64,000 nt of DNA from Salinivenus sp. Its GTDB lineage: Bacteria; Bacteroidota; Rhodothermia; Rhodothermales; Salinibacteraceae. Under the pieces are notes generated by a model, which saw nothing but the letters and a program-made list of their open reading frames with translations, had not been told where the DNA came from and ran no database searches. Where the stretch lies: the NCBI GenBank assembly GCA_046540815.1, contig JBKHEM010000001.1, positions 3,040 to 67,039 on the forward strand, given 5' to 3'. Shown one piece after another: positions 31,939 through 38,931 of this stretch; the first letter of the stretch is position 1; every line of letters starts with the position of its first letter. The position numbers and the translations under genes are program-made.

Positions 31939-32439
31939 TTACCAGCCCAGCGTCCCGGGCCCGCCCTTGAAGGGGCCCACAATGTCGTCGGTAATCCAGC
32001 CGCCGTAAAAATCGCCCTCCTGGGCCCGGACCTGTTCCGTCCCGACGAAGCAGGCGTCCATCTTGCTGGGGTAGAACGCCACGTGATCCTGAAGGACGGC
32101 GTATCGCGTTGTCGGACTCGGATAGGCCCAGGCGGCCCCGCGGACCGACCGATTGCCCACCGTCACGGTGTAGTACACCGCCCGGCCCTTGAATTCGCAC
32201 ATCGAGGTCCGTTGCTCTCGTTCTAGATGCTCGAACGCGATGTCTTTGGGGGGCACATAGTAAACCGGCGGATGACTCGTTTCGAGCACGCGCTGTGCAT
32301 CCGTTGAGTCGGCGAGGGTCGTGTTGTGGAACACCACCCGGACGCGCTGGGCGGCGGGCTCCACGGCGGGGGGACGAGGGTAGTCCCATACGGATTCCTG
32401 GTTGGGACCGGGCTCGATGCGGTCGGAGGACGAAGGCAT
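31939..32439 (-). CDS. DUF427 family protein
   Basis: ESVWDYPRPP, VLETSHPPVYYVP, CEFKGRA, AAWAYP, VAFYP, FYGGWIT. Confidence 0.9.
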   Translation of the reverse strand: MPSSSDRIEPGPNQESVWDYPRPPAVEPAAQRVRVVFHNTTLADSTDAQRVLETSHPPVYYVPPKDIAFEHLEREQRTSMCEFKGRAVYYTVTVGNRSVRGAAWAYPSPTTRYAVLQDHVAFYPSKMDACFVGTEQVRAQEGDFYGGWITDDIVGPFKGGPGTLGW

Positions 32440-32451
32440 GGACAAGAGAGG

Positions 32452-33954
32452 TTAGGAATTGTCGGGCAAACGCCAGTGGGTCGCCAGGGTATCAATTTCA
32501 GCACGCAGGGGGCGATCCTCCTCGATCGGGGCCACGGAGGGCATCCAGTCGGGCGGAGGGGGAGCCGGGCCGTCGGCGCGGCCTGCGTCGCGCAGGTGCG
32601 TCAGTTGGGCGAGGCTGAGGCCGAGCACCGCGAGGATGGGGGCGAGGCGTTCGGTCTGTTCGTGGGCTGCGCGCGCCGCCAGGGCCCCCATCGACACGAT
32701 GTCCTGGTTGTCATTGTTGGTGGGGATCGACGAGGTGGCGGCCATCTGCGCGTTCTGGCGGAGCTCGGCCACGAGGGCCGTGGCGGTGAGTTGAGCGCCG
32801 GCCAGGCCGCTGGTGGGCCCGGGCTGCCAGGCGAGGAGCGGGGGCGCCCCGCCGTTTTGGTCGGGCGACAGGAGGACGTCAATCTGCCGCTCTGCCAGGA
32901 CGCCCACCTGCGTGAGGGCTTCAGTGAGGGCGTCGGCGGCGAATCCCACCTGCTGTCCCTGAAAGTTACCGCCGTGGAGGGCTGAGGGCCCCTCGGGATC
33001 GATGATGGGGTTGTCGTTTGCTCCGTTCAGCTCCGTCTCGATCACAGAACGGGCGTAGGCCAGCTGGTCGCGGGCGGCCCCTAGCACTTGAGGGGCACAC
33101 CGCAGCGAATACACCTCCTGCAGGGGGCGCCGGTCCTGTTCGGCGTTCCCATGCCGGGTGGCCTCCGCACGGATGGCGGCGGCACTCTTTTCCTGGCCCG
33201 TGTGTCCGCGGGCCGCGTGGAGTTGGGGCGCGAGGGCTTCCAGCGAGCATCCGAGCAGGCGGTACGTCCATCCGGTGAGGGCCTCGGCACGTTCCAGCAG
33301 GCGCCGGCCGCGGGAGAGGGCCAGTGCGGCGATCCCCGTCATGAACGACGTGCCGTTGACGAAGGCCAGAGCGTCGCGGGCGTCGAACGACACGGGGCTG
33401 CAACCGATCGCCTGAAGCGCCGCGTCGGCCTCAAGGAGGGTGCCGTCGTCATCGAGCATGTGTCCGTGGCCGGCGTAGGCACGGGCCGCGTGGGCCAGTG
33501 GGGTGAGGTCGCCACTCGCGCCGAGGGAGCCAATTTCGGGGACGGCGGGTGGCGGGGCAGCTTCCAGAAGACGGGCGAGGGCGTAGACGGTGGACGGACG
33601 GGCGCCCGAGTGGCCCTGGGCAAGCGATTGCAGCCGGGCCAAAACCATGGCGCGGACCCCGTCGGGCGCGGCCCAGTCGCCGCTTCCGGTGCTCAGGTGG
33701 GCAAGGAGGTGATCGCTCTGCGCCGCCGTCTCCGGAGCGGCCGTATGGGCGAGGAGGGGGCCGAATCCCGTTGTGAGACCGTACACCTCGTCCCCCCGCT
33801 CACGAATTGCATCGAGGGCGTCGCGAGACCGGCGGAGGGCCTGATCCACAGCGTCCGTCCACTCGATGCGCGTGGACCGGTCGCGGGCGGCCTGGTCTAC
33901 GTGCTCACAGGAGAGTGTCGTCTCGGGACCGAGGGCGACGGTGGGAGAGGCCAT
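32452..33954 (-). CDS. tal: aromatic amino-acid ammonia-lyase, predicted tyrosine ammonia-lyase
   Basis: VYGLTTGFG, MIO motif GSLGASGDL, QEVYSLRC, NDNP, HGGNF, NQDIVSMG. His-Leu specificity pair (LAHLSTG) typical of TAL. In an operon with pyp. Confidence 0.88.
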   Translation of the reverse strand: MASPTVALGPETTLSCEHVDQAARDRSTRIEWTDAVDQALRRSRDALDAIRERGDEVYGLTTGFGPLLAHTAAPETAAQSDHLLAHLSTGSGDWAAPDGVRAMVLARLQSLAQGHSGARPSTVYALARLLEAAPPPAVPEIGSLGASGDLTPLAHAARAYAGHGHMLDDDGTLLEADAALQAIGCSPVSFDARDALAFVNGTSFMTGIAALALSRGRRLLERAEALTGWTYRLLGCSLEALAPQLHAARGHTGQEKSAAAIRAEATRHGNAEQDRRPLQEVYSLRCAPQVLGAARDQLAYARSVIETELNGANDNPIIDPEGPSALHGGNFQGQQVGFAADALTEALTQVGVLAERQIDVLLSPDQNGGAPPLLAWQPGPTSGLAGAQLTATALVAELRQNAQMAATSSIPTNNDNQDIVSMGALAARAAHEQTERLAPILAVLGLSLAQLTHLRDAGRADGPAPPPPDWMPSVAPIEEDRPLRAEIDTLATHWRLPDNS

Positions 33955-33963
33955 GAAGGACGG

Positions 33964-35514
33964 CTATGGAGACGAGGGCGTTCCGGACTGGTAGGCCTCG
34001 GAGAGCGAGGCGCTCATGGCGGTGCGATCGACAGTGCCTTTCGAGTGGGTCTGCCACGCCTCGGGCGGGACGGTCGTGCTCCACACGAGACGGGAGCCAA
34101 GCGAGCCGAGGGTGGCGCGAAGCGTCTCCAGGTCCGGCAGCTCGGTAGAGGCCGCGTCCGGGCAGAGGGCGACGGCCACGTTGTCGCCATCCGGCGTAAA
34201 GAGGAGGGCGTCGCGGAGGGTGCCGAACGTCGTTTTGAGCGTTGATTCCAGGGCTCCGGCCTGCACGAGGCGGCCGTTGGAGAGCTTGAAGGAGGCGTCC
34301 TTGCGCCCCCGGAAGAGAAAGCCGTCGTCGGTGCGTTCTACAAGGTCGCCGGTGTGAACGGTGCGCGTGGGATCGACGCGGTCCAGCGTGCCGTTGCGCC
34401 AGAAGCCCACGCAGGCGTTTGGGCCTTCAAAACACAACTCCCCGTCGTCGGCAACCGTCACGCTGCACCCCACGGGAGCGCCAATGTAGTGGGCGCGCCA
34501 GGTGCCGCGAGGGCCGAGGGTGATGCCGGGGCCCGCCTCGGTTTGGCCGTAGCCAGCCCGCAGGGCTGTCTGGGAGAGGCGCTCGGCGAGGGGAGCAGAT
34601 ACGGGGGCGCCGCCCACGATTCCGCCCTGCAGGTCGTGGAGGAGGGCCCGTCCGTCGGTGGTCTCGAAGAGGCGCTGGATGGTGAGGGGAACCGAGGAAA
34701 GGTGGGTTGTGCCCCAGGCCTCCCGGAGGGAGACCAACTCGTCCGGGCTGCGGCCGCCGTGGGGATCTCGAATGAGTTCGGCGCCGGAGAGGAGGGCGGG
34801 AAGGAGGTCGAGGACAAGGCCGAAGCAATGCGACCAGGGAAGGACCGAAAGCACCCGGGCATTGCGGAGAGCAAAGTGGGGCAGGTGGCTCGCGAGGACG
34901 GAGAGGACATTGCGGTCCGAAAGCGCGACCCAACGACCCTGGTGGGTGCCGGAGGTGCGAAGGAGGAACCGAACGTCCGGGGTGCGCTCGGTCCGGTGGG
35001 ACCGCAGGGCATCGGGCGTAGAGCGGGGGCCGGCGTACTCATCGGAGCCCCAGGCGTGGGGATTGCCGTCCGGGGTCACGGCCGCACGGGCATCGAGGGG
35101 GGCGAGCAGGGAGGCCGCGTCCGTACCCGGAGGGACGAGGACGACAGTAAGTTGCTCCCACAGGGCCGCCACCAGCACCTGGATGAAGGCGGTGGAGGGG
35201 GGCAGCCCAATCACGAGGCGGTCGCCCGGCTGCAGGCCGTGGGCGCGAAAAGCGTCGACCCAGAGGCGGGAGCCGGTCCACAGGGAGGCGGCGGGTGTGA
35301 TCGTGCCGTCCGTAATCAGGGCCGGCAGCGGCTCATCGCAGAGGCGATCGTAGAGAAGGTCGTGCCACGGATTGGAAAACGAGGCCCCAGGGGCCGTGCC
35401 GTGGGTCGGGCACTGGTCAAGGGCCGCCTGTACGGCGGCGACCGATTCGGGACTTTCCGCCGTGCGGGGCAGGCCGCTCCACTCCGACGGGTCCGGGGTG
35501 CCGTTCGTCCGCAT
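33964..35514 (-). CDS. pcl: adenylate-forming enzyme, predicted p-coumarate:CoA ligase for PYP chromophore attachment
   Basis: RTSGT, LPWSHCFG, GYGQTEAGP, HTGDL, FRGRKD. Located between pyp and tal. Confidence 0.82.
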   Translation of the reverse strand: MRTNGTPDPSEWSGLPRTAESPESVAAVQAALDQCPTHGTAPGASFSNPWHDLLYDRLCDEPLPALITDGTITPAASLWTGSRLWVDAFRAHGLQPGDRLVIGLPPSTAFIQVLVAALWEQLTVVLVPPGTDAASLLAPLDARAAVTPDGNPHAWGSDEYAGPRSTPDALRSHRTERTPDVRFLLRTSGTHQGRWVALSDRNVLSVLASHLPHFALRNARVLSVLPWSHCFGLVLDLLPALLSGAELIRDPHGGRSPDELVSLREAWGTTHLSSVPLTIQRLFETTDGRALLHDLQGGIVGGAPVSAPLAERLSQTALRAGYGQTEAGPGITLGPRGTWRAHYIGAPVGCSVTVADDGELCFEGPNACVGFWRNGTLDRVDPTRTVHTGDLVERTDDGFLFRGRKDASFKLSNGRLVQAGALESTLKTTFGTLRDALLFTPDGDNVAVALCPDAASTELPDLETLRATLGSLGSRLVWSTTVPPEAWQTHSKGTVDRTAMSASLSEAYQSGTPSSP

Positions 35515-35564
35515 TCCGGGTAAGAGGTCAGGGCGTAGAGAGAAAGCGGTTCGGGGGAGACTGG

Positions 35565-36026
35565 TTAATACTTCTCAACCAGAATCCAATTGTTACCGGC
35601 CGCATCGCGGTGCAGAAGCACGTCCACGAGCGTCGGACGCATCTTGTACGTGTAGGTGTAGGTAAACGTCTCGTGAAGGTCGCCCCGCCGCACGCCTTCC
35701 TTGAAGCGTCCCCAGAAGAGCCGGTTGTTTGTGCAGGGGGCAACCTGCGTGAAGAAGTTTCGGCCCACGGCCTCGTCGGGCGAGACGCCGCTCAGTTCGG
35801 ATTCGTACTCGTTGAAAAATTGCACGACCCCCTCATCGTCGACTTGAATAATTCCGAACGACGCATTGTCGAGCTGCTCCTCGCTGGCATGCTGCAACTT
35901 TTCCCCGAGGTTCTCATCGTCGAAGTGCAGTGTGTCCACGGTCGGGGCCTCCTCGGAATCATCCGCGGAGTTCGTAGCGCCTGAGTCGAGGACCGGGGCG
36001 TCGTCGTGTTGGGCGTCGTCAGACAC
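35565..36026 (-). CDS. pyp: photoactive yellow protein with acidic N-terminal extension
   Basis: FGIIQVDDEG..N..E..G..GRNFFTQVAPCTN (chromophore Cys69)..GRFKEGV..FTYTYTYKMRPT..WILV. Confidence 0.95.
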   Translation of the reverse strand: MSDDAQHDDAPVLDSGATNSADDSEEAPTVDTLHFDDENLGEKLQHASEEQLDNASFGIIQVDDEGVVQFFNEYESELSGVSPDEAVGRNFFTQVAPCTNNRLFWGRFKEGVRRGDLHETFTYTYTYKMRPTLVDVLLHRDAAGNNWILVEKY

Positions 36027-36069
36027 GAGTCAAGGGGGAGTCGTGAGGGGACCGCGAAGGAAACCTCGG

Positions 36070-37203
36070 TTATGCAGGCCGAAAGAGAATCCAGCACACG
36101 GGGCGATTCGACGGGCAGTGCAGCTGCACGAGCAGTGTCGTATTGGTATCCGCGCCGGTGAACGTGTGCAGAAACCGGGTGTCCCGGGGACGGTTCGACA
36201 GCAGGTCCCCGAGGGCGTCCGCAGAGCGGGGGGCGGCCCGGGCAAGCGGCGTACCCACGAGGGACTGAACCTGGCGGGCCGATACGTCTGGCCATCGGAG
36301 GGCGGCTGTGTTCGCCCGGCAAATGATGCCATCATCGTCGACGCAGAACGCCCCAACCGGGAGATCTTCAAGGGCATCGGGCTCCAGGTCGTCAAGCCGG
36401 TGAATCGTTTCGGGGGACAGCAGCGGCTCGCCGGCCGGATGCTGTTGACGCTCCACGTACAGGTCGACCAACTGCTCCTCCATGCTGCTGATCAGGGCGA
36501 GGGCGTGATCGGGGGTCTGCACGCCGTGCTGTGCCAGCTGTTCCTGCTGCTCGTACAACGCCTCCAGCTGATGTTGCATGCTGCGCAGCATCTTCAGCGC
36601 GGACTCGGAATCTGAAAGGTCCGCATCCAGGAGTCGGTTCCGGTCTGCATACAACTCGTCGAGTTGCTTCGAGAGACTGCGGACCATGGCGGCCACCGCA
36701 TCCGGATCCGACACGCCGAGCTCCGACTGCAGGCGCTCGCTGTGGTTGTTAGAAGCACCGGTTGGCTTCGATACAGGATCCGCGGCTGCGTCGGCGTCCC
36801 GCTCGACGTACAGGACGTTCAGCTGTTCGGCAAGTTGTTCAACCATCTTCACGACCGCGTCGCTGGACGGGACGCCCAAGGTGCGGCATAAATTCTCCTC
36901 GCGAGCCAGATGGGTGTGGAGTTTTTCGTAGGTGTCCTGCGTGTCGGACGATCCGGTGGACTCGGTCGCGCTCCGGTGGGGGGCTCTCTTTTCGTCGTAG
37001 AGGACCGAGAGTTGAGCTTCCATACTGTCGATGGCCCGCAAGGCATCCTCAAGGCACTGGAAGTTGGAGTGCGACAGTGCGGTTTCGGCCTCCCCCAGTT
37101 CCTGAACGCGGGGCAGAACGGCCTCAGGATCCGATACGGAGAGAAGCTCCATGAGATCGTTCCAACGGTCCCGGTACCAAGATGAGTCGTATGAGTCGGG
37201 CAT
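36070..37203 (-). CDS. helical-repeat protein with a C-terminal degenerate PYP/PAS domain
   Basis: Five QLxxLY repeats, then about 115 aa alignable to the adjacent PYP (LPVGAFCVDDDGII..AAPRS..FLHTF..WILF) but lacking Cys69. Confidence 0.8.
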   Translation of the reverse strand: MPDSYDSSWYRDRWNDLMELLSVSDPEAVLPRVQELGEAETALSHSNFQCLEDALRAIDSMEAQLSVLYDEKRAPHRSATESTGSSDTQDTYEKLHTHLAREENLCRTLGVPSSDAVVKMVEQLAEQLNVLYVERDADAAADPVSKPTGASNNHSERLQSELGVSDPDAVAAMVRSLSKQLDELYADRNRLLDADLSDSESALKMLRSMQHQLEALYEQQEQLAQHGVQTPDHALALISSMEEQLVDLYVERQQHPAGEPLLSPETIHRLDDLEPDALEDLPVGAFCVDDDGIICRANTAALRWPDVSARQVQSLVGTPLARAAPRSADALGDLLSNRPRDTRFLHTFTGADTNTTLLVQLHCPSNRPVCWILFRPA

Positions 37204-37344: not shown

Positions 37345-38757
37345 TCACGCGACGCCGGTGCGATCGGCAATCAGGTCCTGGAGTTCAGATTTAAAGCGAT
37401 CGGCGAGGGCCTGCGCCTCCTCCTCGGTCGGCGCCTCGGTGTACACGCGGAGGATGGGCTCCGTATTCGACGGTCGCATGTGCACCCACGAGTCGGAGAA
37501 ATTAATCTTGAGCCCGTCGAGCGTAGAGTGGTCTTCGTTGGGATACGCCGCGGCGAGGGCATCCAGGAGGCGGGCTGGGGCGAGGTCGGGGAGCGGCAGC
37601 TGGTCCTTCGCCATGGCGTAGTGCGGCAGGTCGTCGTGCAGGGTGCTCAGCGACTGGCCGGTCTCGGCAAGGTGTTGGAGAATAAGGGCCGTTCCCACGA
37701 GGGCATCGCGTCCGTAATGTAGGTCGGGGAGGATAACGCCACCGTTGCCCTCGCCGCCGAGCACCGCATCGACGGCTTTCATGCGTTGCACCACATTGAT
37801 TTCCCCAACGGCGGAACGATGGACGGGTTGGTCGTGGCGGGCAGCCACGTCGTCGATAGCCCGGGAGGAGGAGAGGTTGGTCACGAACGGGCCGTCGCGA
37901 TGTCCCCACAGGAAGTCAGCCGCGAGCACCTGGGTGAGTTCTTCGAGCACGAACCGGCCGGTGTCGTCGACCAGGGCGAGGCGGTCGGCGTCAGGGTCCA
38001 CGGCCAGGCCCAGGTCGGCACCGACTTCGGGGACGGCGGCGGCGAGCTCTGTGAGATGGGCGGGCCGGGGCTCGGCGGGGTGGGCAAAGCGGCCCGTCGG
38101 CTCGCAGTTCAGGCAGTGAATGTTTTCTTCCGCCACGCCCAGGCGGTGCAGCAGGCGGGGCAGGGCCTCTCCCCCAACTGAGTTGACCGCGTCCACGGCG
38201 ACGGTAAAGTTCTGCCGGGCGATCCGGGGCGGATCGATGAGGTCCAGTCCCAAAATGGCGTCAATATGAGGGCCGAGCGCGCTTTTTGTGGTGTAGGCGC
38301 CCATCTCGGCGTGGCGCACCGGGGCGGCAGTGTTGGCCTCCGCCATGTCAATCACGGCCTGTCCTTGCTCCGGCGTGAGGAACTCGCCGTGTTCATTCAA
38401 CAGCTTCAGGGCGTTCCATTCTTCCGGGTTGTGGGAGGCGGAGAGAATCACTCCCCCGGCGGCCTCTTCAAAGAGAACGGCCATCTCGACGGTTGGGGTG
38501 GGCACCGGGCCCACGTCGATCACATCGCATCCCATGCCGCGCAGGGTGCCAGTGACGATTTGACTACAGGCGTCGCCGGTGGTCCGGGCGTCCCGCCCCA
38601 CGACGACCGCCGGCATCCGGCCGGCCGTTCGGGCGCGCTGCCGGCACCAGGTGCCGTAGGCTCCGGCGTACCGCACCAGCACCGAAGGGTCGAGGCCGTC
38701 CCCCACAATGCCGCGAATGCCGGAGATGGAGGCGATGAGCGTACCGGAGGAGGACAT
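37345..38757 (-). CDS. glmM: phosphoglucosamine mutase (Bacteroidota type)
   Basis: SISGIRG, LSASHNP, DPDADR, GGEGNGG, HYGRDA, RPSNTEP. Confidence 0.88.
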   Translation of the reverse strand: MSSSGTLIASISGIRGIVGDGLDPSVLVRYAGAYGTWCRQRARTAGRMPAVVVGRDARTTGDACSQIVTGTLRGMGCDVIDVGPVPTPTVEMAVLFEEAAGGVILSASHNPEEWNALKLLNEHGEFLTPEQGQAVIDMAEANTAAPVRHAEMGAYTTKSALGPHIDAILGLDLIDPPRIARQNFTVAVDAVNSVGGEALPRLLHRLGVAEENIHCLNCEPTGRFAHPAEPRPAHLTELAAAVPEVGADLGLAVDPDADRLALVDDTGRFVLEELTQVLAADFLWGHRDGPFVTNLSSSRAIDDVAARHDQPVHRSAVGEINVVQRMKAVDAVLGGEGNGGVILPDLHYGRDALVGTALILQHLAETGQSLSTLHDDLPHYAMAKDQLPLPDLAPARLLDALAAAYPNEDHSTLDGLKINFSDSWVHMRPSNTEPILRVYTEAPTEEEAQALADRFKSELQDLIADRTGVA

Positions 38758-38931
38758 AGGGGGACGGGTCTTGTGGAGAGAAGGCGGGAGGCCCTCAGGC
38801 ATCGGGCCGTCGCTGCGTAGCGCAGGTCGCTCAAATGGTTCCGTTCGCGTCCTCTTAATGGAACCGAGCAGGCCTCCTGTCGTGCCAAAATTCAGAAGAA
38901 AACCCTCTACTCACACGCCCCCTTGTGGCGC

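Follow-up and report, generated by a model that had tools for sequence, protein, structure and literature searches.

A Cys69-less PYP paralogue joined to helical repeats and encoded beside pyp in a Salinivenus gene cluster

The PYP family has been defined by Cys69, with substitutions of this residue noted in clades A and B (Xing 2022, PMC9664959, as far as its available text goes). The signaling partners of single-domain PYPs are described as largely unknown in the available parts of both this paper and Dohmen 2025 (PMC12826048). The accessible portion of the latter deals with PYPs that contain Cys69, names the signal chain as a gap still open, and reports 25 PYPs with unexplained N-terminal tails. 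In Rhodobacter capsulatus, the gene for PBP (RCAP_rcc01067; 10.1101/2021.06.01.446672) is next to pyp, and according to the part of that source available to us its product binds only light-activated PYP.

The DNA analyzed here, referred to as the window, is a 64,000-nt stretch of a Salinivenus sp. contig (JBKHEM010000001.1). On its minus strand it carries, in order, a pgm gene, a gene here called X, pyp, pCL, TAL, and a DUF427 gene:

37345..38802, minus strand: phosphoglucomutase-family gene (pgm), a fixed upstream landmark for this locus type
36070..37203, minus strand: gene X (P0001, 377 aa), with an N-terminal helical cap, five scored 32-residue repeats, and a C-terminal blind PYP domain, as predicted
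36442..37068, minus strand: predicted helical repeats of X (aa ~46-74, 107-137, 156-190, 190-222, and 220-254)
36070..36426, minus strand: blind PYP domain of X (aa ~260-377), from profile, structure, and residue alignment
35565..36026, minus strand: pyp, 153 aa, clade-B type, with F42/E46/C69
33964..35514, minus strand: AMP-binding enzyme, likely p-coumarate:CoA ligase (pCL), from Pfam PF00501 (E 3e-26) and its position in the pyp cluster
32452..33954, minus strand: aromatic amino acid lyase, likely tyrosine ammonia lyase (TAL), from Pfam PF00221 (E 2e-130)
31939..32445, minus strand: DUF427 protein, the conserved last gene of the cluster, from Pfam PF04248 and synteny

The intergenic gaps from X onward are 43 (X to pyp), 50, 9, and 6 nt; pgm is probably not part of the PYP system. 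Like the Halorhodospira halophila pyp-pcl-tal operon, as described in the available part of PMC12826048, the window has pyp followed by pCL and TAL; unlike that operon, it has X upstream, the DUF427 gene downstream, and a Y42F PYP. The DUF427 gene is kept even at loci without pyp and TAL. A scan for promoters and terminators gave no signal above chance level. The genome to which the window belongs (G000, 80.6% complete) has one X, one PYP, and one copy of a further protein, Y, which is described below. A homologue labeled Salinibacter sp., at 76% identity, points to a place for the window in Salinibacteraceae.

Relatives of X have very likely been tabulated before. At least 10 rows of Data Set S3 of Xing 2022 (PMC9664959), in the form available, list “hypothetical” proteins of 460-1096 aa from Salinibacteraceae or Rubricoccaceae (Rhodothermales) without Cys69; their residues at positions 42/46/69 are A/A/G, V/G/S, L/A/S, I/D/S, V/A/S, A/A/S, V/A/G, or A/A/A, and their accession numbers are mostly adjacent to those of true PYPs. 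It is from length, residues, and position that we assign these proteins to the X family. The same data set has rows of F/E/C PYPs with the gene order of the window, in one of which the slot of X is given as “None”. The available text of the paper says nothing on the repeats, on the adjacency of the X family to pyp, or on Y.

PYP ancestry of the C-terminal domain

The sequence-only reading of this locus had the end of X aligning end to end with the neighboring PYP. The segments quoted for this likeness are present in X, in register. The whole domain is matched at the level of the family; in X itself, a ~5-residue deletion removes F75-R-G-R-F79, and the alignment is to that extent interrupted. 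BLASTP of X against the neighboring PYP gives E 0.092, over 21 aa only. Between the X domain and this PYP, 24 of 115 aligned residues are identical, with a local score equaled by 10 of 2000 shuffles. Pairwise BLAST of these two sequences does not by itself establish homology.

The TIGR02373 (photo_yellow) model scores 18.5 bits on X (E 0.0017), below its cut-off of 143 bits; the neighboring true PYP, at 111.5 bits, is also below it. Ten of 12 X homologues score between 29 and 76 bits with this model, P0004 scores 16.8, and P0090 gives no match. Searched against the PDB, a profile of 88 homologues has PYPs as its best matches, spanning the entire domain (E 8e-22); the best non-PYP chain, a PAS, follows at E 0.004. 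Comparison of the family with an alignment of neighbor-type PYPs by hhalign gives a probability of 99.8 (E 3e-28, 119 columns). The AlphaFold model of X predicts a confident PAS domain here, with pLDDT 84-97 in blocks of ten. Foldseek, proposed earlier as a check, returns PYP as the top match to the predicted structure (E 3.5e-8), and VIA-align of the domain model places Ppr-PYP best (Z 13.3, rmsd 2.2, 101 aligned), with the best non-PYP PAS at Z 11.2; the AlphaFold model was built from the family alignment, and these structural matches are not independent of it. Profile and predicted structure both put the domain nearer to PYP than to generic PAS domains. On these grounds aa ~260-377 of X are a PYP paralogue, though not a member of the Cys69-defined PYP family.

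In the alignment, A297 is at the Tyr42 position, A301 at the Glu46 position, and R326 (codon 36228-36226) at the Cys69 position, exactly the replacements that had been read from the sequence. With none of the three residues present, the usual attachment of p-coumarate should be impossible, again as had been proposed. Across the 88 homologues, position 69 is Ala in 44, Gly in 34, Asp in 5, Ser in 3, and Arg in 2, and Cys in none; position 42 is Ala in 74 and Val in 6; and position 46 is Ala in 68, Val in 11, and Ser in 7. By this count Arg at position 69 is lineage-specific (2 of 88 homologues). An insertion near positions 47-50 is family-wide, with W/L-P near 49-50 and the P in 88 of 88. Cys69 with Ala at 42 and 46 occurs in a few long paralogues (L049, P0275); that at L049:9414-11312 has a domain of the blind clade and no adjoining pyp. 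The neighbor of X, taken to be the “real” PYP, does have E46 and C69, but it is a natural Y42F variant (F71), and Phe is found at position 42 in 117 of 120 of its close homologues.

Two quick trees, both of ~125 columns and with SH-aLRT support only, bear on the age of the blind state. In the first, which has 144 domains (65 blind, 73 Cys69 PYPs, and six plasmid outgroups), a single clade unites all 65 blind domains and is separate from the Cys69 PYPs (SH-aLRT 98). In the second, which is broader, the 20 blind domains sampled are together with three library proteins (SH-aLRT 83). L001-L020 were excluded from the tree and from the synteny count given below, longer versions being used, and identical domains were counted once. 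The six outgroups fall inside the Salinibacter PYPs, probably through long-branch attraction, and the trees are therefore taken as unrooted; which PYP clade is sister to the blind clade is not settled by either. Since the blind clade holds members of families f1, f10, and f19, the duplication is older than those families, and the suggestion of an ancient pyp duplicate stands, with the blind domains as one separate clade. A recent duplication of the neighboring pyp was also considered and is ruled out, the blind domains forming their own clade in both trees.

The copy in X is an eroded one. It keeps 20 of the 29 positions at which at least 70% of blind domains agree, the nine consensus residues lost being F62, F63, F75, G77, R78, F79, G82, Y94, and R111. 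The FRGRF helix motif (F75-F79) is deleted, a loss of ~5 residues that follows the Arg codon; in the family, this NNxLFRGRF helix, which in the neighboring PYP comes after position 69, has F75 in 58, G77 in 50, R78 in 51, and F79 in 48 of 65 members. One contig of run X1, which spans 35474-36281, is identical letter for letter, so that neither the Arg codon nor the deletion is an assembly slip, unless X1 is the window's own source sample. Against G018, dN/dS is 0.23 for the blind domain, 0.15 for the repeats, 0.04 for PYP, 0.13 for pCL, 0.16 for TAL, and 0.07 for pgm, and against three further relatives it is 0.25-0.29 for the blind domain, values that are rough because dS is near saturation. 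The blind domain is the faster-evolving in nearly all pairs in which it was compared with PYP. Decay across strains, named beforehand as an observation that would speak against a working domain, was not found: dN/dS of ~0.23-0.29 indicates purifying selection, and the reading frame is open in every fetched subclade member of X. Reading X as a pseudogene is ruled out by dN/dS well under 1. To judge by substitution patterns, the blind domain of X is eroded yet under purifying selection.

Distribution of the repeats, PYP, and protein Y

The N-terminal 32-residue repeats are absent from the earlier reading. In the AlphaFold model aa 1-255 of X are predicted to be helical; this single-chain model leaves the blind domain unplaced relative to the repeats (pTM 0.43). 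Five repeats are scored, with the core pattern Q-L-x-x-L-Y, and the last three have a 96-nt period. A Pfam scan of the repeats found no family at cut-off, and Pfam and NCBIfam together gave only generic coiled-coil matches, all below cut-off. The ESM Atlas returned no usable match for the repeats or for Y, and no description of the 32-residue repeat or of gene X was found in the open-access literature.

Protein Y is ~140 aa long and predicted to be all-helical, with an invariant Y-x3-K-x2-W motif. In G000 its gene (C27:16167-16640; L120:7168-7641) has no pyp beside it. Searches found no Pfam family, no PDB sequence match, and no Foldseek match at E<=0.001 for Y; its best VIA match, HscB (Z 7.7, rmsd 3.0, 87 aligned), is in the background range of helical bundles. 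Longer Y proteins were also sought, with one match, of 266 aa. In G051, one protein (L122:5032-6786) begins with a Y-like domain and also has CheA dimerization and CheW domains, no Hpt or ATPase domain being scored in it; a receiver-domain protein follows it, and gas vesicle genes are its neighbors. G000, at 80.6% completeness, yielded neither a CheA dimerization domain nor an MCP domain.

The loci are of three types. Type I has the order pgm-X-pyp-(second X)-pCL-TAL-DUF427; type II has a long X (700-1230 aa) followed by one or two PYPs, divergent from the ~140-aa helical Y; and type III has Y and a lone PYP. Between pyp and pCL, the loci L025, L026, L029, L034, and L052 have a second gene with repeats and a blind PYP domain, more diverged than the first, and at the type II loci L031, L040, L059, L060, L095, and L103 another repeat-like helical gene comes after pyp. 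The PYP of type III loci has Y42, unlike the Y42F PYP beside X; many genomes of the genus thus carry two PYP types, which may differ in spectrum or kinetics.

The position of the blind-domain gene beside pyp proves to be conserved: of 64 distinct blind-domain genes, 51 have a Cys69 PYP immediately downstream and five have one immediately upstream, with two of the remainder at contig ends and six without a nearby Cys69 PYP. Conversely, a blind-domain gene is missing upstream of 18 of the 72 distinct PYPs. All of these counts come from loci fetched around matches and are thus not an unbiased sample. Among the 201 genomes of the order that were searched, 25 yielded PYP; 26 the repeat (all 25 of these, and G051); and 26 Y (24 of the 25, G051, and G108, where neither PYP nor repeat was found). 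The other 174 genomes have none of the three. The blind domain is present in 17 of the 25 PYP-bearing genomes, and all eight without it have repeats. The 25 belong to four families, and 14 of them to a single genus, so that few independent events are represented.

Losses have occurred at the pgm locus. Nine genomes of the genus no longer have pyp or the blind domain there but retain an 88-100-aa one-repeat protein, which is under purifying selection (dN/dS 0.08-0.31 in pairs with usable dS); in eight of these nine loci, those whose contig shows it, TAL has also been lost and pCL kept. The same nine genomes have a PYP elsewhere, beside Y. The one-repeat protein sits between pgm and pCL (L041-L048, L051). 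In G009 the blind domain is kept with no pyp at that locus, and the domain is present at loci without TAL in G029, G030, and G009; the long X paralogues are at loci without pCL and TAL. The pyp-pCL-TAL clusters of L101 and L113 have no repeat gene directly upstream. In G038 (L105:8964-11216), a repeat-only ORF is immediately followed by pyp-pCL-TAL and shares the frame of pyp, a single TAG separating the two; this is possibly a model for the origin of a fusion, or a case of readthrough.

Fusions were searched for among 1.84 billion representatives, and the best 150 matches were examined. Within these 150, repeats are fused to a Cys69 PYP in P0284, P0318, P0295, and P0330 (0 of 200 shuffles each) and, weakly, in P0300 (1 of 200); in the same shuffle test the repeat score is at chance in P0285, P0314, P0313, and the PYP of the window. 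P0275, which has a cluster member named Chthonomonadaceae, combines repeats with an A42/A46/C69 domain. P0345 is a second, independent blind repeat fusion, sister to the intact P0284 and P0300 (SH-aLRT 99). Also among the best 150, Y is fused to repeats in P0316 and P0344, and to a Cys69 PYP in P0313.

Possible roles of X and its blind domain

The reading we favor, plausible though we stop short of calling it probable, is that X could serve as the scaffold of a light-signaling module of PYP, X, and Y, with the blind domain as a light-insensitive leftover of an old repeat-PYP fusion, a folded cap or dark-state mimic. Gene content suggests that the repeats, rather than the blind domain, are likely the working part and the likelier link to the signaling partner of PYP, since relatives keep repeats even without a blind domain. 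With X as scaffold, the blind domain is likely something other than the main docking site of the sensor. Holo-PYP would bind the acidic amphipathic repeats depending on its light state, and the repeats would relay the signal to Y; Y being without a family or a clear fold match, this output step is a guess. The blind domain would descend from a repeat-PYP fusion and mimic dark PYP on its own repeats where the NNxLFRGRF helix is kept; in typical members, which keep it, the domain would fill one repeat site from within and so set a threshold. From X itself this helix is gone, so that there the domain would be mostly structural, and is probably a folded cap.

Typical members have retained PYP-specific residues for very long, which fits a docking role of the blind domain itself equally well. 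The domain might heterodimerize with PYP, PAS to PAS and in a light-dependent way, leaving the repeats as a spacer or effector arm. PAS-PAS dimerization is common, the blind domain is kept beside pyp in four lineages of the order, family members retain the NNxLFRGRF helix and the hydrophobic core of PYP, and blind repeat-PYP fusions arose at least twice. We nevertheless find it doubtful: the eight of 25 PYP genomes that have no blind domain do keep the repeats, and mostly Y; X has lost nine consensus positions, including the most conserved PYP-like motif, while its PYP stays conserved (dN/dS 0.04 against G018); and in G009 the blind domain has no pyp at its locus. The losses in particular tell against the blind domain as the functional link, which had been its proposed role. 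A further reading is that in the lineage of X the domain is a remnant in slow decay, retained only as the folded end of a useful repeat protein. The X subclade is on a long branch, with a deletion in a conserved helix; repeat number is down from ~6 to 4-5; sister lineages have lost the domain outright; and its dN/dS against G018 is the highest of the cluster (0.23, compared with 0.04-0.16). Set against these are dN/dS values well under 1 in the four closest comparisons (0.23-0.29, with dS near saturation), the open frame in all fetched subclade members, the 20 of 29 consensus positions retained, and a confidently predicted fold, and a vestige seems unlikely.

Other readings fare less well. Small residues at 42/46/69 could widen the pocket, the family-wide W/L-P insertion is near positions 49-50, and the gene is in the same cluster as pCL and TAL, all of which would suit a pocket re-purposed for some small molecule, with free p-coumarate and coumaroyl-CoA among the candidates and buffering or carriage of the chromophore as one conceivable use. 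We think this improbable, as both phenolate hydrogen-bond donors are gone (each replaced by Ala), positions 31, 42, 52, 66, 69, and 96 vary widely in the family, long paralogues are at loci without pCL and TAL, and the domain outlives TAL in G029, G030, and G009; the coumarate binding once suggested is disfavored on the first and last of these points. It is very improbable that the repeat protein is a GvpC-like gas-vesicle scaffold tying PYP to buoyancy control, even if the 32-residue helical period is reminiscent of the GvpC repeat length and X or Y has gas vesicle genes as neighbors in L060, L074, L095, L105, L106, and L122 (gvpA/J, gvpN-like ATPase, gvpL/F, gvpH). PF00741 is found in only six of 33 genomes of the genus, and neither in G000 (80.6% complete) nor in G007 (99% complete, with three X genes); the module is kept in complete genomes without gvp genes (G007, G003, G004); and Pfam scans list no GvpC family for X. 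As the main function of X, a GvpC-like role is rejected on the distribution of PF00741. Redox sensing through cysteines, also raised in the sequence-only reading, we give almost no weight. X has six Cys, and a redox role has been proposed for methylobacterial Ppr-PYP (PMC9664959, available text), but C50, C106, C295, C363, and C370 are unconserved, C287 is matched by Cys in 37 of the 88 homologues, and there is no conserved pair; this reading is rejected on Cys conservation.

The scaffold reading can be taken further, to a form that we regard as rather unlikely as a whole: PYP, the repeat protein, and Y would be the missing relay core of clade-B PYPs; the blind domain, as a built-in mimic of the dark state, would keep the repeats shut, to be dislodged by PYP once light has activated it; such a pseudo-photoreceptor regulator would have evolved at least twice; and outputs, among them CheA-like proteins and gas vesicles, would be reached via Y.

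Comparison with known PYP systems

The main value of the locus is in the module of repeat, Y, and PYP, more than in the eroded blind domain: the missing partner of PYP becomes testable. The locus offers small, soluble, specific partner candidates in the 90-aa protein with one repeat, the 140-aa Y, and the blind domain; their binding to a PYP of a type already characterized could be assayed for light dependence, and the natural series of long, eroded, and domain-less X would allow the contribution of the blind domain to be examined. Taken alone, that domain is less of a surprise than in the earlier reading, since PYP homologues without Cys69 have been described and the supplement of PMC9664959 tabulates what seem to be members of the family, to judge by the part of it available. 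Compared with the Cys69-less homologues of Data Set S3, in the rows available, X is more eroded than typical members.

PBP of R. capsulatus, at 142 aa, is predicted in the available part of its description to have N-terminal helices and beta-sheets, whereas the X repeats and Y are predicted to be all-helical, a comparison made by description only. Like methylobacterial Ppr-PYP, as described in the available text of PMC9664959, X has a PYP-derived domain without the chromophore Cys in a multidomain protein. Ppr-PYP belongs to clade A and is N-terminal to a phytochrome and a kinase, with a Y42C/S50C pair proposed for redox (same source, same part); unlike it, the X domain is C-terminal, with no enzyme output and no conserved Cys pair. 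With the PYPs of H. halophila and S. ruber, the X domain shares, by profile and predicted structure, both fold and sequence ancestry; unlike them, it stands behind helical repeats and has an insertion near positions 47-50.
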